DNA from: Eledone cirrhosa
Taxonomy: Eukaryota
Reading direction: 5' to 3'
NCBI GenBank assembly: GCA_964016885.1
Contig: OZ024743.1
Coordinates: forward strand, 232,624,001 to 232,688,000
Length of the DNA stretch: 64,000 nucleotides
The translations under genes and the position numbers were made by a program. The notes beneath the pieces were generated by a model. The model did no database searches. It saw only the letters and a list, made by a program, of their open reading frames with translations, and was not told the DNA's origin. Positions 3,226 to 42,830 of the stretch are shown here, piece by piece; position 1 is the first letter of the stretch, and the number at the start of each line of letters is the position of its first letter.

Positions 3226-3624
3226 AGGCCAGCACGTGGGACCCCATTTGCTCACCATATGGATTAAGACATATAACCTCTCTTTTTCTTTTATTTACTC
3301 TTTTACAACCGATTATTACATGGTTTGGTTTAAATTCAAGATGGAATATATATGAGTAAAACATGTGTATAAAGTAAGGCAATGCTTCGTCAGAAGAAAT
3401 AAAAAAAAAATACGCTGAGGACAAGATGTAGGGTATTGGATGTTACATTTCAACATGTACACACAACAGGTTATATTAAAATGTATGTTCATACTAAAAT
3501 AGTATGTTCTTCGATGCCACTGCTAGACCGAACGGAAGACGATTGTCATCAAAACACATAGCGTAATGAGGCTGTATGCTTGCAAACGAATCGAATATTA
3601 TTATCATTATTCGATATAAAACGT

Positions 3625-5521: not shown

Positions 5522-5753
5522 ATACGAGATAATATAAATTAATATATTTGATAAACACAAATACCAACATATTCATGTTTGTATTGTAAATGACCAAGTT
5601 AGATAGATTGAAATATACTAATAATAATATATATACTAATAGTAATATTATTATTAGTATATTTCAATCTAGCTAACTTGGTCATTTACAATACAAACAT
5701 GAATATGTTGGTATTTGTGTTTATCAAATATATTAATTTATATTATCTTGTAT
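5522..5753. repeat. About 230-bp fold-back palindrome in (TA)n
   Basis: Arms of about 108 bp are nearly perfect reverse complements. The downstream tail tacacggctcagaaa..ctctttctttgag recurs at 34814-34885. Confidence 0.9.
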
Positions 5754-5830
5754 TACACGGCTCAGAAATACTCTTTCTTTGAGCTATTTCATTGTAAAAG
5801 ACTGCCTGAGATTTGAACTCATTATTATTG

Positions 5831-5911
<81 letters not shown>

Positions 5912-5917
<6 letters not shown>

Positions 5918-6043
5918 GAGTTAGGATCCCGACGGCTAAGCTCCGGCCGATTCGACAGCTAGATCCGAACTTACTACTGGCTTAGTTCGGATCTAGCTGT
6001 CGAAACGGCCGGAGTTCAGCCGTCGGGGTCCTGACTCTTCCCT
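5912..6043. repeat. About 130-bp fold-back palindrome
   Basis: cgacagctagatccgaact / agttcggatctagctgtcg inner arms. Shares gccgtcggggtc with 4745-4806. Confidence 0.9.
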
Positions 6044-6160: not shown

Positions 6161-6161
<1 letters not shown>

Positions 6162-9100
6162 CACTGATGAGGGACTCATTTTATTACATGTTATCCATGC
6201 GCTACCTGCAGTATTTTTCTCCATATTTTATTACATATATTTACCCAAACTGCGATTCTGTGTTTTTCTCTCTCTCTCTTACTGTTCCCCCATTCTCTCT
6301 GTTTCTCCTACTTTCTTTCGCCCCCTCTGTCATGTCAGTTAGCTCTTCCTCACACTTTCACTCACTCACTGTTTCTCCTCTCTTCGCTTCATCCTGTACA
6401 CGACGAAAGCTATATTTTTCTCTCTTCTCACATGGCCCTCGTTCGTGTCAGGTCTTTTTTCTAAAGCGCTCATATATTCACCTAGCTTATGCTAAACAGA
6501 ATAATTATGAAGCTTGTTTCATTCCCCTATGGTTAGCTATACTCTTCGTTGTTCTCCTGTCTCACTCGCTTTACGCGTTTTAATTGTCCTAATAACTTAT
6601 TTTAGTTATTATTGCACCGACGTGAGGTATATGATTTTTAATGCAATGAAATATCTATGATCGTCGGCAAATCACTGATGAGGGACTCATTTTATTACAT
6701 GTTATCCATGCGCTACCTGCAGTATTTTTCTCCATATTTTATTACATATATTTACCCAAACTGCGATTCTGTGTTTTTCTCTCTCTCTCTTACTGTTCCC
6801 CCATTCTCTCTGTTTCTCCTACTTTCTTTCGCCCCCTCTGTCATGTCAGTTAGCTCTTCCTCACACTTTCATTCACTCACTGTTTCTCCTCTCTTCGCGT
6901 CATCCTGTACACGACGAAAGCTATATTTTTCTCTCTTCTCACATGGCCCTCGTTCGTGTCAGGTCTTTTTTCTAAAGCGCTCATATATTCACCTAGCTTA
7001 TGCTAAACAGAATAATTATGAAGCTTGTTTCATTCCCCTACGGTTAGCTATACTCTTCGTTGTTCTCCTGTCTCACTCGCTTTACGCGTTTTAATTGTCC
7101 TAATAACTTATTTTAGTTATTATTGCACCGACGTGAGGTATATGATTTTTAATGCAATGAAATATCTATGATCGTCGGCAAATCACTGATGAGGGACTCA
7201 TTTTATTACATGTTATCCATGCGCTACCTGCAGTATTTTTCTCCATATTTTATTACATATATTTACCCAAACTGCGATTCTGTGTTTTTCTCTCTCTCTC
7301 TTACTGTTCCCCCATTCTCTCTGTTTCTCCTACTTTCTTTCGCCCCCTCTGTCATGTCAGTTAGCTCTTCCTCACACTTTCACTCACTCACTGTTTCTCC
7401 TCTCTTCGCTTCATCCTGTACACGACGAAAGTTATATTTTTCTCTCTTCTCACATGGCCCTCGTTCGTGTCAGGTCTTTTTTCTAAAGCGCTCATATATT
7501 CACCTAGCTTATGCTAAACAGAATAATTATGAAGCTTGTTTCATTCCCCTACGGTTAGCTATACTCTTCGTTGTTCTCCTGTCTCACTCGCTTTACGCGT
7601 TTTAATTGTCCTAATAACTTATTTTAGTTATTATTGCACCGACGTGAGGTATATGATTTTTAATGCAATGAAATATCTATGATCGTCGGCAAATCACTGA
7701 TGAGGGACTCATTTTATTACATGTTATCCATGCGCTACCTGCAGTATTTTTCTCCATATTTTATTACATATATTTACCCAAACTGCGATTCTGTGTTTTT
7801 CTCTCTCTCTCTTACTGTTCCCCCATTCTCTCTGTTTCTCCTACTTTCTTTCGCCCCCTCTGTCATGTCAGTTAGCTCTTCCTCACACTTTCACTCACTC
7901 ACTGTTTCTCCTCTCTTCGCTTCATCCTGTACACGACGAAAGCTATATTTTTCTCTCTTCTCACATGGCCCTCGTTCGTGTCAGGTCTTTTTTCTAAAGC
8001 GCTCATATATTCACCTAGCTTATGCTAAACAGAATAATTATGAAGCTTGTTTCATTCCCCTATGGTTAGCTATACTCTTCGTTGTTCTCCTGTCTCACTC
8101 GCTTTACGCGTTTTAATTGTCCTAATAACTTATTTTAGTTATTATTGCACCGACGTGAGGTATATGATTTTTAATGCAATGAAATATCTATGATCGTCGG
8201 CAAATCACTGATGAGGGACTCATTTTATTACATGTTATCCATGCGCTACCTGCAGTATTTTTCTCCATATTTTATTACATATATTTACCCAAACTGCGAT
8301 TCTGTGTTTTTCTCTCTCTCTCTTACTGTTCCCCCATTCTCTCTGTTTCTCCTACTTTCTTTCGCCCCCTCTGTCATGTCAGTTAGCTCTTCCTCACACT
8401 TTCATTCACTCACTGTTTCTCCTCTCTTCGCGTCATCCTGTACACGACGAAAGCTATATTTTTCTCTCTTCTCACATGGCCCTCGTTCGTGTCAGGTCTT
8501 TTTTCTAAAGCGCTCATATATTCACCTAGCTTATGCTAAACAGAATAATTATGAAGCTTGTTTCATTCCCCTACGGTTAGCTATACTCTTCGTTGTTCTC
8601 CTGTCTCACTCGCTTTACGCGTTTTAATTGTCCTAATAACTTATTTTAGTTATTATTGCACCGACGTGAGGTATATGATTTTTAATGCAATGAAATATCT
8701 ATGATCGTCGGCAAATCACTGATGAGGGACTCATTTTATTACATGTTATCCATGCGCTACCTGCAGTATTTTTCTCCATATTTTATTACATATATTTACC
8801 CAAACTGCGATTCTGTGTTTTTCTCTCTCTCTCTTACTGTTCCCCCATTCTCTCTGTTTCTCCTACTTTCTTTCGCCCCCTCTGTCATGTCAGTTAGCTC
8901 TTCCTCACACTTTCACTCACTCACTGTTTCTCCTCTCTTCGCTTCATCCTGTACACGACGAAAGTTATATTTTTCTCTCTTCTCACATGGCCCTCGTTCG
9001 TGTCAGGTCTTTTTTCTAAAGCGCTCATATATTCACCTAGCTTATGCTAAACAGAATAATTATGAAGCTTGTTTCATTCCCCTACGGTTAGCTATACTCT

Positions 9101-10788
9101 TCGTTGTTCTCCTGTCTCACTCGCTTTACGCGTTTTAATTGTCCTAATAACTTATTTTAGTTATTATTGCACCGACGTGAGGTATATGATTTTTAATGCA
9201 ATGAAATATCTATGATCGTCGGCAAATCACTGATGAGGGACTCATTTTATTACATGTTATCCATGCGCTACCTGCAGTATTTTTCTCCATATTTTATTAC
9301 ATATATTTACCCAAACTGCGATTCTGTGTTTTTCTCTCTCTCTCTTACTGTTCCCCCATTCTCTCTGTTTCTCCTACTTTCTTTCGCCCCCTCTGTCATG
9401 TCAGTTAGCTCTTCCTCACACTTTCACTCACTCACTGTTTCTCCTCTCTTCGCTTCATCCTGTACACGACGAAAGCTATATTTTTCTCTCTTCTCACATG
9501 GCCCTCGTTCGTGTCAGGTCTTTTTTCTAAAGCGCTCATATATTCACCTAGCTTATGCTAAACAGAATAATTATGAAGCTTGTTTCATTCCCCTATGGTT
9601 AGCTATACTCTTCGTTGTTCTCCTGTCTCACTCGCTTTACGCGTTTTAATTGTCCTAATAACTTATTTTAGTTATTATTGCACCGACGTGAGGTATATGA
9701 TTTTTAATGCAATGAAATATCTATGATCGTCGGCAAATCACTGATGAGGGACTCATTTTATTACATGTTATCCATGCGCTACCTGCAGTATTTTTCTCCA
9801 TATTTTATTACATATATTTACCCAAACTGCGATTCTGTGTTTTTCTCTCTCTCTCTTACTGTTCCCCCATTCTCTCTGTTTCTCCTACTTTCTTTCGCCC
9901 CCTCTGTCATGTCAGTTAGCTCTTCCTCACACTTTCATTCACTCACTGTTTCTCCTCTCTTCGCGTCATCCTGTACACGACGAAAGCTATATTTTTCTCT
10001 CTTCTCACATGGCCCTCGTTCGTGTCAGGTCTTTTTTCTAAAGCGCTCATATATTCACCTAGCTTATGCTAAACAGAATAATTATGAAGCTTGTTTCATT
10101 CCCCTACGGTTAGCTATACTCTTCGTTGTTCTCCTGTCTCACTCGCTTTACGCGTTTTAATTGTCCTAATAACTTATTTTAGTTATTATTGCACCGACGT
10201 GAGGTATATGATTTTTAATGCAATGAAATATCTATGATCGTCGGCAAATCACTGATGAGGGACTCATTTTATTACATGTTATCCATGCGCTACCTGCAGT
10301 ATTTTTCTCCATATTTTATTACATATATTTACCCAAACTGCGATTCTGTGTTTTTCTCTCTCTCTCTTACTGTTCCCCCATTCTCTCTGTTTCTCCTACT
10401 TTCTTTCGCCCCCTCTGTCATGTCAGTTAGCTCTTCCTCACACTTTCACTCACTCACTGTTTCTCCTCTCTTCGCTTCATCCTGTACACGACGAAAGTTA
10501 TATTTTTCTCTCTTCTCACATGGCCCTCGTTCGTGTCAGGTCTTTTTTCTAAAGCGCTCATATATTCACCTAGCTTATGCTAAACAGAATAATTATGAAG
10601 CTTGTTTCATTCCCCTACGGTTAGCTATACTCTTCGTTGTTCTCCTGTCTCACTCGCTTTACGCGTTTTAATTGTCCTAATAACTTATTTTAGTTATTAT
10701 TGCACCGACGTGAGGTATATGATTTTTAATGCAATGAAATATCTATGATCGTCGGCAAATCACTGATGAGGGACTCATTTTATTACAT
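6161..10788 (+). mobile_element. Tandem array of 9 x 511-bp units plus 29-bp terminal redundancy, inserted in (TA)n; retrozyme/PLE pseudo-LTR-like
   Basis: Unit starts at 6161, 6672, 7183, 7694, 8205, 8716, 9227, 9738 and 10249, with partial unit 10760-10788 (tcactgatgagggactcattttattacat). (TA)n on both sides. Each unit contains CTGATGAG and GAAA motifs. The tandem structure is certain; the mobile-element call is inferred. Confidence 0.8.
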
Positions 10789-10815: not shown

Positions 10816-10886
10816 TTACTGGGGGTAATGTCAAATATTTAGTGTACAGCTGAAATAGACCTGCTTGCATGTATTGAGTGTTCAAG

Positions 10887-10918
<32 letters not shown>

Positions 10919-11126
10919 CATAATCGGAGAAAGCTAATAGCGATACTCCGGCCAAATTCCAACTCACTCAACAAACATTAGGAATTACCTGGGTATATTC
11001 CTAATTAAACGTTCGGGGTGCTAACTAATTGTATTGTGTGGAAAATTGGCTGTATCATTTCATATGAGATATACCAAATATATCCCTTCCCAGACGGACG
11101 TCTCGTTTCATTATAATATTTCTACA

Positions 11127-11163
<37 letters not shown>

Positions 11164-11233
11164 TTGAACACTCAACACGTGCAAGCAGGTCTATTTCAGC
11201 CACACACTAAATATTTGACATTAACCCCAGTAA
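10816..11233. repeat. 73-bp inverted repeat pair enclosing a (TA)n-flanked nested insert
   Basis: 10816-10888 versus 11161-11233 are reverse complements. An unrelated segment of about 215 bp lies between the TA tracts. Confidence 0.85.
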
Positions 11234-12116: not shown

Positions 12117-12360
12117 AAAGATGAAATCGAAAATGCAACTGAAGTCTTATTTTTTAAAAAATATATATATTTATTTGGTTCCTTTACCGGTTTCGCAGTT
12201 CTTCTGCTTTTCAAAAGTAGAGTTGAGATGGAGGGTCTGTGGTTTTTCTCCATCTCAACTCTACTTTTGAAAAGCAGAAGAACTGCGAAACCTGTAAAGG
12301 AACCAAATAAATATATATATATTTTTTTAAATAAGACTCCCGCTGCATTTTCGATTTCAT

Positions 12361-12364
<4 letters not shown>
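12117..12364. repeat. About 250-bp fold-back palindrome between (TA)n tracts
   Basis: Arms of about 118 bp with a loop near 12234-12248. Each arm contains gcag-aagaa-ctgc-GAAAc, resembling the stem II/GAAA half of a hammerhead. Confidence 0.9.
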
Positions 12365-16310: not shown

Positions 16311-16351
<41 letters not shown>

Positions 16352-16559
16352 CGTTTCTGAATTTGTTTAGCAAGATTCTTTATCTGAAAACGTGTGTTGA
16401 AACCGATATTGTTATACTTTGGGAGGGTCAAGTTTCCAATAAGAAACACACGCACCAGTTGCTTTCACTTCAATTTATTATAATAAATTTATAAATTTAG
16501 GAATTTATAAATTTCCGGTTGGTGGGTTGGTTCCACAACCAGATAGTTGTTTATATATT

Positions 16560-16602
16560 GTCAAAGTTCTTTCGTCACATATTCTGTGACATCTTCAGTG
16601 AC
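16560..16602 (-). ncRNA. Minimal type I hammerhead ribozyme (PLE)
   Basis: gtca-CTGAAGA-t-gtcaca-gaata-tgtgac-GAA-ag-aa-ct-T-tgac. Stem I 4 bp, stem II 6 bp, vestigial stem III. Confidence 0.8.
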
Positions 16603-16802
16603 TGGGGTTCTTTTCTTTGTTTTTGTGCCTCTCCTTTGTTCTGTCCTACGCCATCTTGTTTCTGTGTGTGTGTTGTGTGCTCAGTCTGCGCATGCGCCAC
16701 ATCCGGGTGTCTGTGTGTGTTTATATTCGTTTATTTATTTGTTTATTTACATGTTACTGGTTAGTTGTTTGTTCTATGTGCGTGTGTGTTTTCATTTTGT
16801 CC

Positions 16803-17491
16803 TTAATTGTAAGTTGTGATGTTGCTGTTCCACTCATGTCTTCTATTTAATTTTGGTTGTGATTCTTTTATCTTTATTGCCTCTGTGATTTGTCTAAACA
16901 TTGCGTCATTTCTGTGTGTAGATTCTATTTTTATTTCTATGTTCTCTAATTTACCCTTATGTTCTATTTTAGCATGTTGGTAGAGTACAGATGATTCATT
17001 ACTATCTTGAAGGTCTCGCCAGTCTTCATTTATCCGTTCCCCTATACTACGAGCTGTCTCACCTATGTACACTATATTTTTATCTCCACATTGTCCTTCA
17101 GTACATCTTATGCTATATACTACATTTCTAGTTTTACAGTTTATATGGGGGCTTAATTTACAGGTTATACATTTCTTAACTATACAGGGGTCTTTGAAAA
17201 GGGTATGTCTTGCTAATAAGTGTTTTTATGGAGGTACCTGGTCTTTCTACTATCTTAATATTGAGTTTATGTTTATCTAGGGCCCTTCTAAATTTGTAAG
17301 CTAATTCACCTCTAGGGGATGTATCGATGAACATTACACTCTGGTATTTATTGCTATCATACCATGAGTTTATTCTATTAGCCTTATTCCTAGTTCTTTC
17401 TATTCTATTCCAAAATTTGCTCCTATACAAGGGGCAGGTCCCATTTGTGTCATTATTTACCATTTTTTCGCATTTGGTTCTGGCTCCTCTA
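16803..17491 (-). pseudogene. PLE ORF 3' part (linker + GIY-YIG endonuclease), inverted copy, frameshifted
   Basis: Cys-rich linker, then NVVYSIRC...YIGETARSIGERINE...SVLYQHAKIEH...RQITEAIKI...PKLNRRHEW. Confidence 0.9.
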
Positions 17492-18410
17492 AAACAAATC
17501 CTCCATTCCCATTATGCCAAACCCATGACTTCCAAATATCTGATCCACCGAAACTCAGCTGTTTCGGACCATACCAAAATCAACATACTGATTGTGGATT
17601 TGGTACGGGTGATGAGAAACGTGTCCCGCATGTGCAACCCGAAGAACTAGAGAAACACATACAACACTTCATCCACCGTATGCAGTTCTCTGGTTACAAT
17701 CAGAGAGATAAAATCAGAGTGTATAGAGAAGCCAGAACCAAATGGAAAAAAATGGTAAATAATGACACAAATGGGACCTGCCCCTTGTATAGGAGCAAAT
17801 TTTGGAATAGAATAGAAAGAACTAGGAATAAGGCTAATAGAATAAACTCATGGTATGATAGCAATAAATACCAGAGTGTAATGTTCATCGATACAACCCC
17901 TAGAGGTGAATTAGCTTACAAATTTAGAAGGGCCCTAGATAAACATAAACTCAATATTAAGATAGTAGAAAGACCAGGTACCTCCATAAAAACACTTATT
18001 AGCAAGACATACCCTTTTCAAAGACCCCCTGTATAGTTAAGAAATGTATAACCTGTAAATTAAGCCCCCATATAAACTGTAAAACTAGAAATGTAGTATA
18101 TAGCATAAGATGTACTGATGGACAATGTAGAGATAAAAATATAGTGTACATAGATGAGACAGCTCGTAGTATAGGGGAACGGATAAATGAAGACTGGCGA
18201 GACCTTCAAGATAGTAAAGAATCATCTGTACTCTACCAACATGCTAAAATAGAACAAGGATAAATTAGAGAACATAGAAATAAAAATAGAATCTACACAC
18301 AGAAAAGACGCAATGTTTAGACAAATCACAGAGGCAATAAACATAAAAGAATTACAACCAAAATTAAATAGAAAACATGAGTGGAACAGCAACATCACAA
18401 CTTACAATTA
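17492..18410 (+). pseudogene. PLE ORF 3' part (RT thumb, linker, GIY-YIG), frameshifted
   Basis: HYAKPMTSKYLIHRNSA...RVMRNVS...FIHRMQFSGY...PLYRSKFW...FIDTTPRGEL...KIVERPGTSIK, then a decayed GIY-YIG (YIDETARS). Frameshifts near 17635, 18025 and 18258. Confidence 0.9.
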
Positions 18411-18612
18411 AGGACAAAATGAAAACACACACGCACATAGAACAAACAACCAACCAGTAACATGTAAATAAACAAATAAATAAACGAATATAAACACACA
18501 CAGACACCCGGATGTGGCGCATGCGCAGACTGAGCACACAACACACACACAGAAACAAGATGGCGTAGGACAGAACAAAGGAGAGGCACAAAAACAAATA
18601 AAAGAATCCCCA

Positions 18613-18655
18613 GTCACTGAAGAGATCACAGAATATGTGACGAAAGAACTTTGAC
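18613..18655 (+). ncRNA. Minimal type I hammerhead ribozyme (PLE)
   Basis: gtca-CTGAAGA-gatcaca-gaata-tgtgac-GAA-ag-aa-ct-T-tgac. Predicted cleavage 3' of 18651. Confidence 0.78.
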
Positions 18656-18939
18656 AATATATAAACAACCATCTGGTTGTGGAACCAACCAACCAACCGG
18701 AAATTTATAAATTCCTAAATTTATAAATTTATTATAATAAATTGAAGTGAAAGCAACTGGTGCGTGTGTTTCTTATTGGCAACTTGACCCTCCCAAAGTA
18801 TAACAATATATATATATATATATATATATATTTAACGAAGGGTATAAATAAGAAATAGTTATTGTTAGATGGATTAACAAAGTTGTTAGATGTAATAACA
18901 AGAATAAAAATTTAGTTTATATATGGTTTACTTCACATG

Positions 18940-19456: not shown

Positions 19457-20034
<578 letters not shown>

Positions 20035-20055
20035 TATTGGTGCTCTGAAATAGCG

Positions 20056-20256
20056 ATGTATACATGAATGTATGTATAGTATATTTGGCAATATACCGTA
20101 TGTTCAATTAAAAACATTTAGAAGACCATACGCTATTAGTTTTAAAGTAGTGACATAGTCACTACTTTAAAACTGATAGCGTATGCTCTTCTAAATGTTT
20201 TTAATCAGACATACGTTATATTGCCAAATATACTATACATACATTCATGTATACAT
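20056..20256. repeat. 200-bp fold-back palindrome
   Basis: Centre aaagtagtgac-ata-gtcactacttt, with arms of about 99 bp. Confidence 0.9.
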
Positions 20257-20257
20257 G

Positions 20258-20585
20258 TACGATATATTTACGATTAAACATTTGAAACCCTATAGCTATG
20301 AATTTTGAAGGTGATGACTGACGTTTTATCTACCTCGTTTCAGCAGAAACAATGGGAATCAACCGCCAGTTATTTCTGGTTCACTGACCGTTGTCAAGGC
20401 TACGTGTCCCAATCCCTGCTTCTTACTGGACCTCAAAATAATCCGAAACGATATAACTTTTTCGCCTATGTATATGGGCTGATTAGCCTGACTTGCCAGC
20501 TCAGTCTAAATTGAATGGAACAAGATAGGTGACGTCAGTCATCACCTTTAAAATTCATATCTAAAGGTTTCGTAAACATATCGTA
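20258..20585. repeat. Inverted repeat pair (about 55-65 bp) with 205-bp spacer
   Basis: tacgatatatttacg..gaaacc..atgaattttgaaggtgatgactgacgt / acgtcagtcatcacctttaaaattcat..ggtttcgtaaacatatcgta. Confidence 0.8.
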
Positions 20586-20929
20586 TATTATTTGATATGC
20601 AACCCTCACATATAAATATATATGTATATATATATAAACACTTCATTTTATGTTCCAGTACACACGGCTGAGAATGAGTACCAACAGTTGCTATGATTTA
20701 AGCCTGCGGTGGACTAGTATCCTCTCCGGGTAGAGGAGTCTTAGCTAAACGCCAATGTATATTAGGATATGCACCGCTCAGATGAACTTCCGGGTTTGAC
20801 ACAGGCTTTAACTTTATACACACTCACACAGCATTTAGAAATCTAAATTAAACCTAAAGTTGGTACAACTACAGTTTTTAATACATGTCTGTATGCCTGG
20901 ATGTCTGCATTTTGACATTATGACGTAGC

Positions 20930-27004: not shown

Positions 27005-27272
27005 ATAATTTCTGAAAGTTTCTGAAAGTTCGTTCGTCACATATTTTTTCTGTGACATCTTCATCTAAATTATTTATAAAAATATAAATATTTAGTGAAT
27101 TGAAGCGAAAACCAAATCAAACGATGAGTGTGTTTGATATTCTTTTTAGCAATATTAGGACATGACTCTCCCTAACTATAACAATATCTGTTTCAACACA
27201 CGATTTCATATAAAAAACCTTGCAAAATAAATACATCGCCGTCAAAGAAACGTAAATTAATAAAATATATAT
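27005..27272. mobile_element. Old rearranged fragment of the 16.3-18.8 kb PLE family (inverted hammerhead + 3' tail)
   Basis: Minus strand atgaagatgtcacag...tgtgacgaacgaacttt (decayed HHR). Plus strand tgactctccctaactataacaatatctgtttcaacacacg matches the PLE 3' end. Confidence 0.75.
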
Positions 27273-27823: not shown

Positions 27824-27995
27824 GTGCGTGTGCGCGCGCGCGTGTGTGTGTGTGGCCGTGCGTATTTCTTCGTTGATTTTGTTTTTTGTGTTTTTCTATT
27901 TTAGTTCATATTGAGAAAAATAACAACTGAAATATTTGACAGGTCTAGTTGGTGCTGTTGTTATTGCGTAATCTCTAATAGAGGGTAAAATAGAG

Positions 27996-28585
27996 TACAT
28001 GCCAAACTGTACAGGCAACACCATCAAAGCAATCAACGGCAGTGATATCAACCAAGTCAAGGATTTCAAGTATCTTGACTCCTGGATAATGGACTCTGAG
28101 AAGGATTTCGCAACCAGAAAGGCCCAAGCATGGTCATCTTGCAACAAGATGGATCGAGTGTGGCGCTCAAATCTTTCCAATCACACCAAGATCAGACTCT
28201 TCCAATCTTGCTATATGGAAGTGAACCATGGACGCTTTCATCCAAACAACAAAAGCACCTTGATGGCACTTACACTCGCATGCTTCAACGCATTCAGGAC
28301 ATAAGCTGGGGACATCTGCCTTTGAGAGAGATATATGCCGGCCTCCCACGCATATCTGTCGTTGTACGTAAAAGGAGAGTAAGATTTGCTGGCCACTGCC
28401 ATCGTGCCATCTACAATGATGTGTCCCCATTAGTGCTTTGGAAACCACAAGCAGTGATTAATAACAGGGGGCGCAATTTCTCCTACTCCGATGTCATCAC
28501 CAGAGATTCTGATAATGAACGACAGACCCACGTGGAGATCAATTGTTGAGTCCATTTCGACTGAGGCCGCCGGATGATGATGATG
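27996..28585 (+). mobile_element. 5'-truncated RTE-clade LINE with (GAT)n tail and TSD
   Basis: VKDFKYLDSWI...RKAQAWSSCNKMDRVWRS...LLYGSEPWTL...LDGTYTRML...RVRFAGHCHR, with a frameshift. Tail (gat)4. TSD aatagag at 27989-27995 and 28586-28592. Confidence 0.9.
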
Positions 28586-31000: not shown

Positions 31001-31040
<40 letters not shown>

Positions 31041-31897
31041 TGCAAGGATTTTGACATGAAATCGTGTGTCTAAACAAATATTGTTTTGCTTGGGGAGGGT
31101 CATATTGTTATAATAATATTGCCAGAATTATTAACAGAACACACTCACTGTTTGGTTGGTTTTCGCTTCTGTATCTTTTATATCAGTTAATTTATACGGT
31201 CCTCAATGTTTACCATTGCCTGACCAACGGTCAGTCAATGGTAAACATCGTCAGTGGTGCTATTATGTTTCCTCTTGTTGTATTGTATGTCTACGCCATC
31301 TTTATTTAATCTGTCTATTTATTTATTTATTTATTGTTTTATTGTTTGCTAAACAGAAAAAAATGAATGGAATAACAACAACACCCAAACAAACAATACT
31401 GACCTAAGAGAAATATAAATAAATAAATAAATATATACACGAGCACAATAACAACAAACACATATAAGCACACACTAGTAAACTAAGATAGAATACAATA
31501 ACCAAAACAGTCACTCTAACGCGAACACACATCAAACACTATACACACACGCAAACGCAGGCGCAGAGAAGAAGACAAAAATAAATAAATAAATAAATAG
31601 ACAGATTAAATAAAGTTGGCGTAGACATGCAATACAACAGGAAGAAACATAATAGCACCACTGACGATGTTGCAGATGTGCAACGAAAGAACTGTGTTAG
31701 ACTATATATATGTGTTTGTGTCTATATTATATCTGTATTTTTTACCGTTGGTCTGTCAATGGTAAACTTTGAGGACCGAATAAATTAACTGATATAAAAG
31801 ATACAGAAGCGAAAACCAACCAAACAGTGAGTGTGTTCTGTTATTAATTCTGGCAATATTATTATAACAATATGACCCTCCCCAAGTATAACAATAT
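31041..31897. mobile_element. Non-coding fold-back PLE pseudo-LTR insert related to the 16.3-18.8 kb element
   Basis: Arms about 31078-31330 and 31580-31897 are reverse complements. The 3' end tgaccctccccaagtataacaatat|(TA)n is nearly identical to 18785-18809. Carries an HHR. Confidence 0.85.
31657..31698 (+). ncRNA. Minimal hammerhead motif, probably inactivated
   Basis: acca-CTGACGA-t-gttgca-gatg-tgcaac-GAA-ag-aa-ct-G-tgtt. Same layout as 18613-18655 with a different stem II. Position 17 is G. Confidence 0.7.
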
Positions 31898-32769: not shown

Positions 32770-33780
32770 GTCATTTGCCTTTCATTCTTACGGTGTGGAT
32801 AAAATGAAGTACCAGTAACGCACTGGTGTCAATTCAATCGTCTTCCTCTCCCCCAAAAGTGTTGGCCTTGTGCTTAAATAAGAAACCATATATTAGAATG
32901 GTTTAGAACAGTGAATTAGTAAAGTCGTTTGAGCGTCAGACAGTTGCTTTTCTACATATATTTAAGCTCTTTACTGCCCGAGTTCAAATCCTGAACTTAA
33001 TGAACCAGTCAAGCACTGAAGATCGATGTAATTGCTGGACTAGTGCCTATACTTGAAATCCTTGTTTGGTTAGCGTTTGATTGGCAGTATCGGTAGAGAA
33101 TCTCACACCATGCTTTACATCAGAGAGTTACGTCCCTTTACGGTCTGAGTTCAAATCCCGCCGAGGTTAACTTTCCCTTTCATCCTTACGGAGTGGATAA
33201 AATAAAGCACCAGCAATGCACTGGGATAATTGCTGGCCTTGTGCCAAAGTAGAAACAATTATTAGGTTAGCAGTGTCGGTAGAGCATCAAACACCATGCT
33301 TAGCAGCATAGAGTTATGTCCCTTTACGTTATGTGTTCAAATCCCACTGAGGTTAGCTTTGCCTTTCATCCTTACAATACCAGTAATGAACTAGGATCGA
33401 TTAAATCGACTTTCCTATCCCCTTCAAATTGCTGGCCTTGTGCCTAAAGTAGAAATTATTATTAAACTGATATTCTATTTGTTGGCCACGAAAGTATAAA
33501 AGGAAAATTTTCCTCGCCAAGATTTGAATACAGAGCCTACAAAGCGAGAACAAATACCATAATGTATTATATCTGAGGCTTTAGCAATTGAAACAATACA
33601 CCACTATTTCATCGGTAGAGGGTCGGACGCCATGCTTTCCAGCATAGTTACGTCCCTTTATCGTCTGAGTTCAAATCCCGTCGAGGTTAACTTTGCCTTT
33701 CATCCTTATGGAGTCGATAAAATAAAGTACCAGTAATGTACTGTGTAATTGCTGGCCTTGTGCCAAAAGTAGAAACAACT
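32770..33780 (+). mobile_element. Dense cluster of about 5-6 SINE family A copies/fragments
   Basis: Copies at about 32770-32890, 32900-33060, 33080-33262, 33265-33462 and 33610-33780. Confidence 0.85.
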
Positions 33781-34167
33781 ATTTCAGAAAATTCCTATAC
33801 CGTTAATTAAGAAATTGGAGTCACAATTTGGTAGATATTTATTATTTATATGGATACTTTTCATTTCTTGCTGTTCTACAACAAATATAGGTATATAATG
33901 GCCTTATATTCACAAATGTTGACATGTATATTTTAGGAATATGAAATTGTTTCTATACAAAAGGCCTTGTTGGGACATCTGTTGTAGGTGAAATGAATGG
34001 AGACTTTGGTGTATGTGGTTCCAAAATTATAAATCTACAAATTGCAAATTTATTGATGCACATACAATGGGGTAACACTCAAAGAAACACATACGGTTAT
34101 ATATACAGATAAAATTTTCTCGCAACCATACACACACACACATATATATATACATATACACACACTA

Positions 34168-34201
<34 letters not shown>

Positions 34202-34255
34202 ACGCACACGCACACACACACACATAGATGTGTCTTTGCACATATAAGCTCGCAC

Positions 34256-34631
34256 ATTTGTATACAGTTATGTTCGAAGCTGAATTCTAATTCTATTATA
34301 TTATAAGTTGAGCCAACTTATAGACCTTCATATGCAAATGAGATTAATCACCTCATTTAAACAGACGAAAAAGCTATATATTTTCGCGTGTTTTCAATGT
34401 CCGGCAGTTGCAAGCGGGAGAGATCGTACTGCCGAGGACCAGTTAAGTTCGAAATGCATCGATGATTGTCCTCCTTGCTTCTGTCGGACACCGCCTGGTG
34501 GCGTTAGCTGCCAGTGTTATTCATAGCTATCGCTTTCTAAATGTTTATTTATAAACATACCGTATTGCTTTAGAAATACGAAATTCAAATATATATTTGT
34601 ATACAGCTATGTTTGAAGTAAAATTCTAATT
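34256..34631 (+). mobile_element. 339-bp hammerhead-containing unit with 37-bp terminal redundancy
   Basis: atttgtatacag.tatgtt.gaag...aattctaatt at 34256-34292 and 34595-34631. Internal HHR. Followed by (TA)n. Confidence 0.65.
34423..34466 (+). ncRNA. Minimal hammerhead motif with palindromic stem III (one core substitution)
   Basis: atcgta-CTGCCGA-ggac-cagttaa-gttc-GAA-atgcat-C-gatgat. ATGCAT is self-complementary. Core A6>C. Confidence 0.6.
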
Positions 34632-34895
34632 ATATATATATATGTGTGTGTATGTATATAATTATATCGGTTTGTTTTATTGTTTTAAATTTAGTCTGGT
34701 AAGCCCTATTGTTAATAGTTAGTATTTTTTTCACCCTAGCGTATCTGGTCCCTCACCATTTGAACATATATATGTTTATATCTGTGTTTATCTCTCTTCT
34801 ATATTCTATTATATTACACGGCTCAGAAAAACCTCTTTCTTTGAGGTATTTAATTGTAGGAGACTATTTTGAGTTTCTAACTCAATATATACATT

Positions 34896-34967
<72 letters not shown>

Positions 34968-34978
34968 TGTATGTATGT

Positions 34979-35424
34979 ATGAAATTTCATTTCACACTGT
35001 TAGTACGGTTGATACTTAAATATAAGTATGTATACGTACATACATATATGTATACAGACGTACAGTATTATGTATATACATACATACATGCACACACATA
35101 TATATATGTACGTATGGGTTTACCGAACATTTATTATAATGCTCGGTTTGTTTGTAAACAAACAGCCCGAATTATTAGCGGTACAGTGTTCAGCTACCAT
35201 CGTTGCCCTTTTGTTTAACACTGACAAAGGAACGATGAACTAGTTTCTAGCTTATTAGCTGTCATCAGCACCGTATACCTTTCTGTCAGTTGATTGAACG
35301 TTTGAAAGTATATACTTTCCTTATGCATATTAACGGTTGAGCAGCCTAATTTGCATATCGAGTGAGTTAGTCGGCCAGGCGTACCGAAAACGATAAATGG
35401 AAAAAATGAAATTTCATTTCTCAC
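34979..35424 (-). mobile_element. 427-bp hammerhead-containing unit with 19-bp terminal redundancy between microsatellites
   Basis: atgaaatttcatttc(a/t)cac at 34979-34997 and 35406-35424. Internal HHR on the minus strand. Confidence 0.65.
35232..35274 (-). ncRNA. Minimal type I hammerhead ribozyme with palindromic stem III
   Basis: acggtg-CTGATGA-c-agct-aata-agct-a-GAA-actagt-T-catcgt. Stem I pairs at 6/6 (one G-U), stem II 4 bp, ACTAGT self-complementary, GUU triplet. Confidence 0.8.
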
Positions 35425-35447
35425 ATGTATGCATGTATACATATATA

Positions 35448-35502
<55 letters not shown>

Positions 35503-36451
35503 GGGGGGGCGCATGCGTGTACTGGTGTACGTATATATGTATGTTTGGGCGTGTACATCGATGCGTCGAACAAATATACCTTCTTGTATTTCGATTCACT
35601 TTCGATTAGTTTTCTCATTTTATGCTATAGAGTAAACCCATCCATCCGATAAATATAGATCGATGAAATGTAAACGGCCAAAATGCTGGAGACGGTTGCT
35701 TCTGACAGAACCCGCTGGAAGGAGTGTTTAAAGATTCTTCCTCCACGGCCCTCTCATGAAGAAGAAGAAGACTCAATATAATCCAATATACATGTTGAAG
35801 AACTCACCACAGAGTAGCCGCAATCTAATGACATGAGAACAAAACCAGAATGGGAAACAAATTCGCCAATATGGTTGAGAGAACAGAAAAATCCACTTCA
35901 ATACCTGACTGATGAGATGGGAGACGAAGTGCTTACACTCAAAGCATAAAAAAAAATGAAAAACGGAATTTACAGCTGAGAACTATGCAGATGTACTTGT
36001 TCTTTAACAAGGTTGCGGGTCATGGAAGTTTTCTCGGGTGTTTTAATGATATGGGACCTAGTCTTACCATGAAATTAAACATTTTGCACAAAAATACTAC
36101 GTGCCATTCGGTCGGGAATCCAACCCACAACCTTAACCCTGTGACTCCAACATCCTAACCACTTTGTCACGCCCTTCACATGCGGTCTAATGACATGAAA
36201 CCAATAGTAGAATAGTTGTAAACATGAAGCAGGGAACAGAGAAATCGACCTCCCTCATAACTATTTTATCGACCTTGGTAGGATGTGAGGCATTACAGTA
36301 TGATAGTTTAGGAGATACCATGGTGGTATGCAAAGCGAACACTTTTCCACTAAGATCCCCCCCCCTCTCCCACGGAACCGTAACAATTATGACAAGGTAT
36401 GTTATTTGAAGGCAACTCATCATCCTTGCTGCCATATCATTAATAGATATA

Positions 36452-40882: not shown

Positions 40883-41024
40883 ATATTTATTAAAAATAAC
40901 AGATTAAAGTTTAAGCAAAGAATCGCTGTTTTCCCCCTTAACGGGATCTTCTTAGTTAGTCTCAGAAGATCCCGTTAAGGGTGAAAGCAGCGATTCTTTG
41001 CTTAAACTTTAATCTGTTATTTTA

Positions 41025-41032
<8 letters not shown>
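40883..41032. repeat. 150-bp fold-back palindrome adjoining (TA)n
   Basis: Centre gggatcttct-tagttagtctc-agaagatccc. A single-arm homologue lies at 21517-21590. Confidence 0.9.
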
Positions 41033-41106
<74 letters not shown>

Positions 41107-41128
41107 TGTATATATGTATACTATATAT

Positions 41129-42303
41129 GTTGGTGTCTCTGGAAGGTTACTACAGTGGATCAAATGTTTCCTGACAGGCAGAACCCAGCATGTTGTAGTC
41201 GAAGGAGTAAAATCAAGCCCTGCCAAAGTCAGCAGTGGCGTCCCACAACGCACTGTGTTGGGTCCACTTCTTTTCATCGTCTACATTAATGACATTACTG
41301 ACATCATCAAACACAGCAACATCAGAATCTTCGCAGATGATTCCAAGCTCCAAAGGGTCATCAATGAGGTGGGTGACCGGACTTGCCTTCAGTCAGACCT
41401 ACTGGCTGTTATCCAATGGGCAGAAATGAATAATATGCTGTTGAATGAGGATAAATTTGAACTAATCCACTTTGGAAAAAAGGATGCCCTGAAACTACCA
41501 TACTCTCTTCCTTCGGGTGAAACTCTAATGGCTTCCAATAACATCAGAGACCTGGGAGTAATTGTGGACAACAATATAAGCTGGGCCACTCATATAAACA
41601 CCAAAGTTGATATGGCCCGCAGAATGTGTTCCTGGATTCTCAGAACATTCCAGTCGAGAGATATCCACACTGTTGTCCTTCTCTTCTCTACCTTTGCGCC
41701 CCCCACCTTGAATACTGTTGTCCACTGTGGTCATCCCACACGAAACAAAGTATCATGAAAGTTGAAGCAGAACAAAGGTCAATTACAAAAAAGATAGTTG
41801 GCATGACAGGCCGTGACTATTGGGGTCGATTAGAAAAGCTCAAACTTTATTCTCTTCAACGTCGCCGTGAGCGTTACATTATCTGCATGATGTGGAAAAT
41901 ATACCATCAGCTTAGCCCAAATTATGTTGGCATCACCTTTAGTGTACACCCGAGGCTTGGGCCCCGTGCTATTCGCTCACGACAGAAATCCCACTCGCAT
42001 CACATAACAACAATACGGCAACAATTATTTCACCTTAATTGGCCCTGCACTCTTTAACATTACACCAAAACACATCAAAGCAGAGACAGACCCCATCCAG
42101 TTCAAGAAGACTTTGGATAAATTCCTTCAAGAAATCCCGGATAGGCCTCCTACACCCGGATATGCCTCCGTAAAAAATAACTCTCTGCTCGAGTGGGCCA
42201 TGGTGCCCAAACACTGATTTGTAAGACTTCGCCAGGTGGTGGTATTAAGTTAGACAAGGCCTTGGCCAATACTGGCCGAAACCTATCAAAGTTATCAAAG
42301 TTA
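41129..42303 (+). mobile_element. 5'-truncated CR1/L2-group LINE (RT C-terminal half), one frameshift, in (TA)n
   Basis: SGVPQRTVLGPLLF, FADDSK, KFELIHFG, RDLGV; frameshift near 41700; then PHLEYCCPLWS, LYSLQRRRERY. Tail (tatcaaagt)2. Confidence 0.93.
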
Positions 42304-42311
42304 TATATCTA

Positions 42312-42349
<38 letters not shown>

Positions 42350-42431
42350 AAAGTTCTATTTAAATTGTTGGGATACAACAAGCAAATATTTGTATAACTG
42401 ATATAAAGCACTCAACAAGTATTTGGAGTAA

Positions 42432-42798
42432 ATATACGATATTAACAAATGGAAACTATATTTATAAAACCATATTTATTTCATTATACATATTTCAAGG
42501 ATACCAAGTTAAATTGTGGTGTGCTTTCGTTAGACAAAATATAATATAGATCAGTTTTACAAATAAATAGTGACATACCCTTAAAAAATGCAACCATTAC
42601 TGTTGGAAGCTCCCGGGAGCTTCCAACAGTAATGGTTGCATTTTTTGAAGGGTATGTCAATATTTATTAGTAAAACTGATCTATATTATATTTTGTCTGA
42701 CGAAAGCACACCATAATTTAACTTGGTATCCTTGAAATATGTATAATGAAATAAATATGGTTTTATAAATATAGTTTCCATTTGTTAATATCGTATAT
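42432..42798. repeat. 367-bp spacerless palindrome adjoining (TA)n
   Basis: Centre ...ttggaagctccc|gggagcttccaa... at 42614/42615. Arms of about 183 bp with few mismatches. Confidence 0.95.
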
Positions 42799-42830
42799 AT
42801 ATATATAAATATATATATATAGATATATAC

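Follow-up and report, generated by a model that had tools for sequence, protein, structure and literature searches.

Two probable retrozyme-like inserts with Penelope-type tails at both ends in the genome of Eledone cirrhosa

Two non-coding inserts in the genome of Eledone cirrhosa are likely to be old, decayed and distantly related solo copies of a retrozyme-like element, each carrying at both of its ends the known tail of Penelope-like elements (PLEs). They lie in a 64,000-nucleotide stretch of contig OZ024743.1, referred to below as the window. Unit 1 (34256-34631, + strand) consists of one 339-bp monomer and a 37-nt tail, and unit 2 (34979-35424, − strand) of a 427-bp monomer, about 328 bp without an internal microsatellite, and a 19-nt repeat. 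At the level of class, we are confident that these are non-autonomous, tail-bearing elements mobilised by PLEs. More specifically, we propose that they are diverged copies of a non-LTR retrozyme, inserted in trans into (TA)n by a PLE, likely from a ligated RNA circle that was reverse-transcribed through one full turn and the tail. We assign this reading a probability of roughly one half. Within the PLE-mobilised reading the circle is slightly favoured over a tandem RNA, at about even odds.

Both the PLE-tail layout and the idea of a circle have been published already (PMC4209133, PMC7229834). Monomers that carry the tail at each end are the kind of evidence that bears on whether PLEs use a circular template or an uncleaved tandem RNA; the present two copies, which are old and damaged, do not settle it alone. 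The family itself may be undescribed. A literature search for cephalopod retrozymes, or for the arrangement of octamer and TATA described below in such elements, found no description; hammerheads go unmentioned in the main text of the Octopus vulgaris repeat annotation (PMC13282606), and the available portion of PMC10886601 holds nothing relevant to cephalopod retrozymes.

Results

Terminal repeats and the tail

The initial annotation had described terminal redundancies of 37 bp and 19 bp, and these are borne out. The two copies in unit 1, at 34256-34292 and 34595-34631 on the + strand, are spaced by 339 bp and differ at 5 positions (32/37 identical). Those in unit 2, on the − strand, are spaced by 427 bp, with the 5′ copy at 35406-35424 and the 3′ copy at 34979-34997, and have a single mismatch (18/19 identical). 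The score of either repeat was reached by 0/300 shuffles.

The 3′ copy in unit 1 is followed by (TA)n. The last 113 nt of the unit align end to end with a relative at 20033-20150 (0/5000 shuffles), and both sequences stop at (TA)n. The match can be seen with the tail alone (3 and 1 of 5000 shuffles) and becomes modest when the TA-rich start is removed from the tail (89 and 141 of 5000). Because the relative ends at the same place, the repeated end of unit 1 appears to be element sequence and not a target duplication. A target-site origin of the direct repeats, named in advance as a finding that would overturn the initial annotation, is therefore not what we see in unit 1, whose repeat is common to a relative at another locus.

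For unit 2 the evidence is weaker. Its 3′ repeat copy, a putative tail end, resembles the end of the 3′ tail of unit 1 (28/5000 shuffles), and its 5′ copy aligns in register with the final 21 nt of the 5′ tail of unit 1 (49/5000). A fixed 3′ end with an optional tail downstream of a hammerhead is thus found in the comparison of unit 1 with 20033-20150 and less clearly in unit 2; the end position is common to unit 1 and its 20 kb relative, and probably to unit 2 as well. The 3′ boundary of unit 2 is ambiguous. Its 3′ repeat lies about 118 nt from the conserved body, and the intervening sequence is mostly microsatellite; a relative of its 3′ half (3505-3620) runs into a microsatellite immediately past the 3′ hairpins and shows no match to the last 42 nt of unit 2 (778/1000 shuffles). 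The microsatellite-like tract inside unit 2 (35017-35115), which makes up about 100 of its 427 nt, is either a later expansion or the true 3′ flank.

One-sided extensions are found in all 5 of the 5 inverted-repeat inserts measured in the window, with lengths of 57, 85, 82, 25 and 45 nt, each ending at (TA)n. The relative at 20033-20150 provides one of these, since its inverted arm is without the last 25 nt. By analogy, we take the extension to be the known PLE tail. This tail is described as a 30-40 bp extension, usually at one end only (10.1101/2021.04.23.441226; PMC3846280), and its one-sidedness and length are in print together with (TA)n targeting (10.1101/2021.04.23.441226). In vitro, according to PMC11167929, it corresponds to the sequence between two internal start sites of the reverse transcriptase (RT) downstream of the hammerhead.

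The two units are otherwise as the initial annotation had portrayed them, non-coding and adjacent to microsatellites. We found neither coding homology nor an ORF remnant in units 1 and 2, and an ORF for RT and GIY-YIG is absent from both; unit 1 also had no match in a phage collection. Their GC contents are 0.37 (unit 1, 339 nt) and 0.35 (unit 2, 427 nt). Microsatellites flank both, in keeping with insertion into a (TA)n or AT-rich target. The sequence between them (34715-34895, + strand) belongs to neither; it is a separate insert of another (TA)n-targeting family, identical at 136/177 positions to 5650-5833.

The hammerhead motifs

A hammerhead had been placed in each unit by the initial annotation, at 34423-34466 (+) and at 35232-35274 (−), and a scan for type I hammerheads returned motifs at exactly these intervals, confirming them to the base. 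The term minimal hammerhead (min-HHR) that had been applied to them suits them less well: the geometry, with a 6-bp helix I, a 4-bp helix II and no bulge after A9, is nearer to the canonical retrozyme type than to the PLE min-HHR as described in PMC4209133. Hammerhead 1 has its core at 34429 and a predicted cut after 34460. It combines a 4-bp helix II, GAAA and a palindromic helix III (ATGCAT) with a core that reads CTGCCGA, in which C stands at the invariant A6, and position 1.1-2.1 is unpaired. A6 is a required position of the hammerhead core, and the motif is likely to be inactive. Hammerhead 2 has an intact core at 35268, a predicted cut after 35238 (GUU), a 6-bp helix I and a palindromic helix III (ACTAGT), with a C.A mismatch at 10.1-11.1 that closes helix II. 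Judged by their sequences, both ribozymes are lesioned and, because helix III is palindromic, each would need a partner copy.

With a strict descriptor, set at the stringency of the unit 1 motif, 2 sites are found in 1-43200 and none in 60 block-wise dinucleotide shuffles; these strict descriptors were composed post hoc, after the hits were known. A loose descriptor, which allows up to two lesions and requires no palindrome, finds 7 sites in the real sequence; the shuffles average 0.83, and 32 of the 60 contain at least one match. Support of an independent kind is suggested by folding, which prolongs helix I into a long hairpin in both units: 34398-34490 (+) in unit 1, with the predicted transcript start near its 5′ end, and 35217-35290 (−) in unit 2. 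The fold of 34395-34495 has a z of −4.17 (1/200 shuffles) and that of 35205-35300 a z of −2.16 (4/200). In neither unit is the hammerhead fold the one of lowest predicted energy (−25.9 vs −41.2 and −12.8 vs −22.1 kcal/mol). Rfam, which is uninformative for hammerheads as short as these, gave no hammerhead hit over the whole window at gathering scores and only microsatellite-driven miRNA matches over 33800-35800 at E≤10.

Relatedness of the two units and their relatives in the window

The two units had been called unrelated in the initial annotation. With ribozyme and tail removed, they nevertheless align colinearly, the score being reached by 2/2000 shuffles upstream, 15/2000 downstream and 0/2000 when the two are summed; cross and reverse controls gave 1554, 1147, 61 and 170 of 2000. 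A local alignment also brings the two ribozyme cores into register (1/1000 shuffles). This link was obtained by Smith-Waterman alignment with shuffles. The homology is weak in nhmmer (E 0.15 and 0.052), a profile built from unit 1 and its 20 kb relative did not recover unit 2 at E≤10, and BLASTN at word size 7 gave no link between the two.

Units 1 and 2 have in common an octamer, a TATA-like hairpin and the 3′ hairpins, in nearly equal spacing. The octamer ATGCAAAT, a predicted promoter element, lies at 34332-34339 (+) in unit 1 and at 35349-35356 (−) in unit 2, and these are its only 2 occurrences on both strands of 1-43300. Its distance from the 5′ end is 76 nt in unit 1 and 68 nt in unit 2. 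In unit 1 a hairpin with a TATA-like loop follows (34367-34385, +; TATATA at 34375), 43 nt past the octamer and 23 nt before the ribozyme hairpin; the corresponding distances for the TATA-like palindrome of unit 2 (35304-35319, −; TATATA from 35314) are 42 and 24 nt. Octamer and TATA-like element together are predicted, from these motifs only, to form a promoter. Two hairpins near the 3′ end of unit 1 (34541-34580, +), a candidate recognition region for the RT, are common to unit 2 (35123-35164, −) and to relatives, among them 3505-3620. A consensus fold contains only the first of the two hairpins of unit 1, with a two-sided change at 1/7 pairs, and the covariation (1 of 7 and 2 of 8 pairs) is too sparse to carry weight.

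At least three further relatives are present in the window. The one at 20256-20597 (−) is recovered with unit 1 alone (nhmmer E 1.5e-12) and comprises a 5′-truncated direct copy, at about 20256-20515, with a decayed ribozyme, together with an inverted 3′ fragment at 20516-20597 (+). We considered whether its first 80 nt might be the 5′ end of unit 1 and rejected this, as the stretch is the inverted 3′ fragment; the profile built from unit 1 and the 20 kb relative was contaminated by it too. The second relative (20033-20256, −) is made up of the 3′ fragment 20033-20150 and an inverted arm at 20162-20256. Inverted, 5′-truncated partners thus occur in relatives (20516-20597, 20162-20256) and are absent at units 1 and 2. 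The third, 3505-3620 (+), is related to the 3′ half of unit 2 (0/2000 shuffles; nhmmer E 0.0022) and ends at (TG)n right past the 3′ hairpins; it does not extend to promoter, ribozyme or tail (651, 757 and 778 of 1000 shuffles). A promoter-block profile matched only its 3 training sequences, and within the 64-kb window the family forms no tandem array, and none of its copies exceeds about 70% identity. On the strength of the alignments, the two units appear to be distant, diverged members of one lineage, and not, as had been supposed, representatives of several independent families.

PLEs and other repeats in the window

The window is dense in repeats: (TA)n tracts are numerous, a SINE-like family occurs at 15 or more sites, and LINE fragments and, from 43.3 kb, a 28-bp satellite are also present. 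It contains the 5′-truncated, frameshifted 3′ end of a coding, GIY-YIG-like PLE (16349-18809), present as direct and inverted copies with bulged hammerheads at 16558-16604 (−) and 18611-18657 (+) and a one-sided tail of 57 nt. Tails related to this one are found at 27160-27235 and 31034-31102. The GIY-YIG-like fragment itself (16806-17225) has Atlas scores of 0.96-0.97, with PF01541 on 15% of the members of one cluster, and no Pfam or homolog-search match. A PLE therefore co-occurs with the two units, in the form of this fragment followed by a hammerhead-bearing 3′ end. Neither unit matches the pseudo-LTR (pLTR) of this PLE (78 and 285 of 300 shuffles), and no similarity was found to the inserts at 42 kb, 31 kb and 5.6 kb. 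The best of 12 such comparisons, between unit 1 and the reverse of the 511-bp unit described below, was reached by 8/300 shuffles and is non-significant after correction.

Other inserts have tails as well. A young palindromic insert at 42346-42801, with arms identical at 171/176 positions, carries one hammerhead-like motif with a long loop 2 in each arm and a one-sided tail of 85 nt. The other (TA)n-targeting family is represented at 5522-5833 by an inverted pair with a one-sided tail of 82 nt and at 34715-34895 by the 77% identical copy between the units, and (TA)n(GA)n follows both. Next to (TA)n, further inserts with a palindromic or inverted-repeat structure, probably of PLE type, lie at 5916-6039, 10821-11228, 12118-12363, 31040-31897 and 40883-41032.

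The initial annotation had likened the layout of the units to that of a 511-bp array, as n units plus a short overlap. The array, at 6161-10788 between (TA)n tracts, does consist of 9 exact units and an exact overlap of 29 nt. Only 4 sites in it vary, in a strict period-3 pattern, (ABC)x3 + 29 nt. The pattern fits three turns round a trimeric circle, as far as can be judged from sequence; amplification at the level of DNA or an assembly artefact is a possible alternative origin. The scan found no type I hammerhead in the 511-bp unit, and the overlap holds one core-like heptamer, 27 nt past a GAAA.

The remaining repeats are of other kinds. The SINE-like family, about 190 bp long, is abundant over 1830-39518 (for example 33028-33786), often as head-to-tail pairs. 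ARAGORN detects no tRNA in it; we take it to resemble the tRNA-derived SINEs of octopus. Broken fragments of non-LTR retrotransposon RT lie at 41006-42230 and 27972-28549, and the first of these matches RVT_1 and octopod proteins; for the fragment 41135-41755 the best named relatives are from Octopus sinensis (64% identity) and, over a shorter stretch, Argonauta hians (66%). The satellite, at 43296-63998, spans 20.7 kb, in which a GT-rich unit of 28 bp is repeated about 743 times, and shows a BLAST periodicity near 5.1 kb.

Discussion

The template of the copies

Each copy spans the ribozyme cleavage site intact and also contains sequence upstream of the predicted start site. Both features support a template that exceeded one linear unit, and because of them a linear monomer cut by the hammerheads is excluded as the template. 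Priming at the tail of a monomer that both ribozymes had cut would yield only the 171 nt downstream of the cut (unit 1), and a transcript from the predicted promoter of a solo unit would lack the octamer and the TATA. Two templates fit, namely a ligated circle and an uncleaved tandem transcript, and they are indistinguishable from these copies. The earlier statement that such RNAs are retrotransposed by slightly more than one turn is thus upheld as regards the length of the template, the extra length of which could come from a turn of a circle or from tandem RNA. The initial annotation had also suggested a search for circularly permuted start points. In our small sample (unit 1, the 20 kb relative and probably unit 2) the 3′ ends look fixed and not permuted; this comparison does not discriminate, because internal initiation by a PLE fixes the 3′ end on a circle and on tandem RNA alike.

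A sequence of events that would produce such copies can be outlined as follows. A tandem source locus elsewhere would be transcribed from the unit's own octamer and TATA-like promoter. Neighbouring hammerheads, given their palindromic helix III, would then pair and cut, and the monomer would be ligated, along the lines set out in PMC4209133 and PMC7229834. If the PLE enzyme studied in PMC11167929 is a guide, an RT/GIY-YIG protein would nick AT-rich DNA, and cDNA synthesis would be initiated within the RNA, at a constant position 170-260 nt past the ribozyme cut. To judge by the anatomy of the units, the copy would run through the still intact cleavage junction, then through the promoter, and end within the tail, the segment enclosed by the two presumed PLE start sites, to give a unit plus 19-37 nt. 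Both solo copies have decayed since, and would be inactive as lone monomers.

The strongest rival retains the same elements and the same PLE enzyme and dispenses with the circle: the template would be a linear, uncleaved read-through of a head-to-tail array, and the copy would be truncated within the upstream tail. We regard this as a serious contender, if somewhat improbable as a complete account, and truncated tandem, pseudo-LTR-like copies are about as likely as circles. Partial tandems truncated at the 5′ end are a standard PLE product (PMC8969392). In the only full in vitro PLE system, that of anole, uncleaved RNA is reported as the dominant substrate (PMC11167929), and in Xenopus 8/9 retrozyme dimers are reported as uncleaved (10.64898/2026.07.22.740005). 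Relatives in the window are 5′-truncated at other points, and the two tail copies of unit 1 differ at 5/37 positions, which heterogeneous array units would permit. On the other hand, the end points of both units, and of the 511-bp array, fall in the tail and not at random, although these cases were chosen for showing a repeat. In addition, hammerheads of canonical type in units of similar size form circles in other animals (PMC7229834), and a circle was proposed for PLEs in 2014 (PMC4209133) and is proposed in PMC7229834 too.

We consider it improbable that the units are solo pseudo-LTRs, that is, 3′ ends of old coding PLE families, with terminal repeats, that of unit 2 above all, that arose as target-site or local duplications. 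According to PMC4209133, the majority of genomic min-HHRs occur singly and derive from truncated PLEs, and some are paired 100-700 bp apart on opposite strands; a TATATATA box is reported in pLTRs (PMC3846280). The roughly 118 nt, mostly microsatellite, that separate the 3′ repeat of unit 2 from its conserved body would also suit this explanation. Against it, the repeat of unit 1 recurs in a relative at another locus and that of unit 2 is in register with the end of the unit 1 tail. Moreover, a coding PLE has its tail and then an ORF, whereas here the tail leads directly to promoter and ribozyme, no ORF remnant is found, and the hammerhead geometry is unlike the bulged type of the coding PLE in the window. 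A chance origin of the motifs and repeats in AT-rich DNA dense in repeats is largely refuted and very improbable: loose descriptors do give about 0.8 matches in each 43 kb of shuffled sequence, Rfam gives no hit and the strict descriptors postdate the hits, but the strict motif and the repeats are matched in 0/60 and 0/300 shuffles, helix I is extended in both motifs and the sequence around the motif shows independent colinear homology.

In a more ambitious version, which at present we think rather unlikely, PLE RT copies RNA circles in whole turns plus a tail, the circles coming from an ancient lineage of octopod retrozymes that are self-promoting and composed of octamer, TATA, hammerhead hairpin and two 3′ hairpins. 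The layout of n units plus a tail, including the (ABC)x3 + 29-nt array, would then be a genomic footprint joining the two-start-site mechanism of PLEs to circular templates, and rolling-circle reverse transcription would become countable directly in genome assemblies. A genome rich in such inserts could test the template by a count of 5′ end points. It is in this genome-wide use, and in the promoter-like architecture common to both units, that the remaining interest of the observations lies.

Comparison with known systems

The units resemble animal non-LTR retrozymes in several respects. They are non-coding, measure about 330 nt and have a GC content below 45% (PMC7229834; 10.64898/2026.07.22.740005). 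The retrozyme units of mussel, coral and axolotl, which form circles, are given as 170-400 nt long with <45% GC and a canonical type I hammerhead, and the 6-bp helix I and 4-bp helix II are also shared (PMC7229834). Co-occurrence with PLEs and dispersed solo monomers, which are common and of pLTR ancestry, are likewise described for them (10.64898/2026.07.22.740005). In the available text of these two sources we found no description of a tail at the ends of the monomer or of an octamer and TATA-like arrangement. Units 1 and 2 differ further in having damaged ribozymes and in being known here as solo genomic copies, with no array in the 64-kb window. Tandem source arrays and circular RNA are defining traits of non-LTR retrozymes.

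With the pseudo-LTR and tail of PLEs such as Penelope/Poseidon and Neptune, as reported in PMC11167929, PMC3846280 and PMC8557442, the units share the fixed 3′ end downstream of a hammerhead, the optional extension of 30-40 nt, the insertion into (TA)n, the inverted, 5′-truncated partners (in relatives) and the TATA-like box. They are unlike it in that an RT/GIY-YIG ORF is missing and one non-coding unit carries the tail at each of its two ends. The plant-type LTR retrozyme, with a type III hammerhead in true LTRs and a 4-bp target duplication (10.64898/2026.07.22.740005), does not fit, the hammerheads here being of type I and the repeats only 19-37 nt long with no ribozyme inside. Non-autonomous elements of Chlamys such as MRC1 (PMC8557442) are also short, are mobilised by PLEs and make pLTRs and head-to-tail inserts. 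They are green-algal and mostly without hammerheads, and their 3′ end matches that of an autonomous partner, a match not found for the units here.

Like the PLE min-HHR of PMC4209133, the hammerheads of the units are of type I, have a palindromic helix III that needs a dimer, and lie solo or in opposite-strand pairs within hundreds of bases, as is often reported for that class. Unlike it, they have a short helix II and lack the bulge after A9 (between 9 and 10.1), and unit 2 lacks the G10.1-C11.1 pair. The units accordingly are neither autonomous PLEs nor plant LTR retrozymes, and their ribozymes do not have min-HHR geometry. The bulged base and long helix II of the min-HHR are found instead in the coding PLE at 16558-16604.

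Newt satellite 2 reportedly has a promoter that includes an octamer. Like the units, it is a hammerhead repeat, and it has an internal snRNA-type Pol II promoter (Coats et al. 1994, as cited in PMC2220036); it differs, according to the same citation, in its large tandem arrays and in that its transcription has been shown. The TATA box reported in the pLTRs of rotifers (PMC3846280) offers a second precedent for an internal promoter of the kind predicted here.
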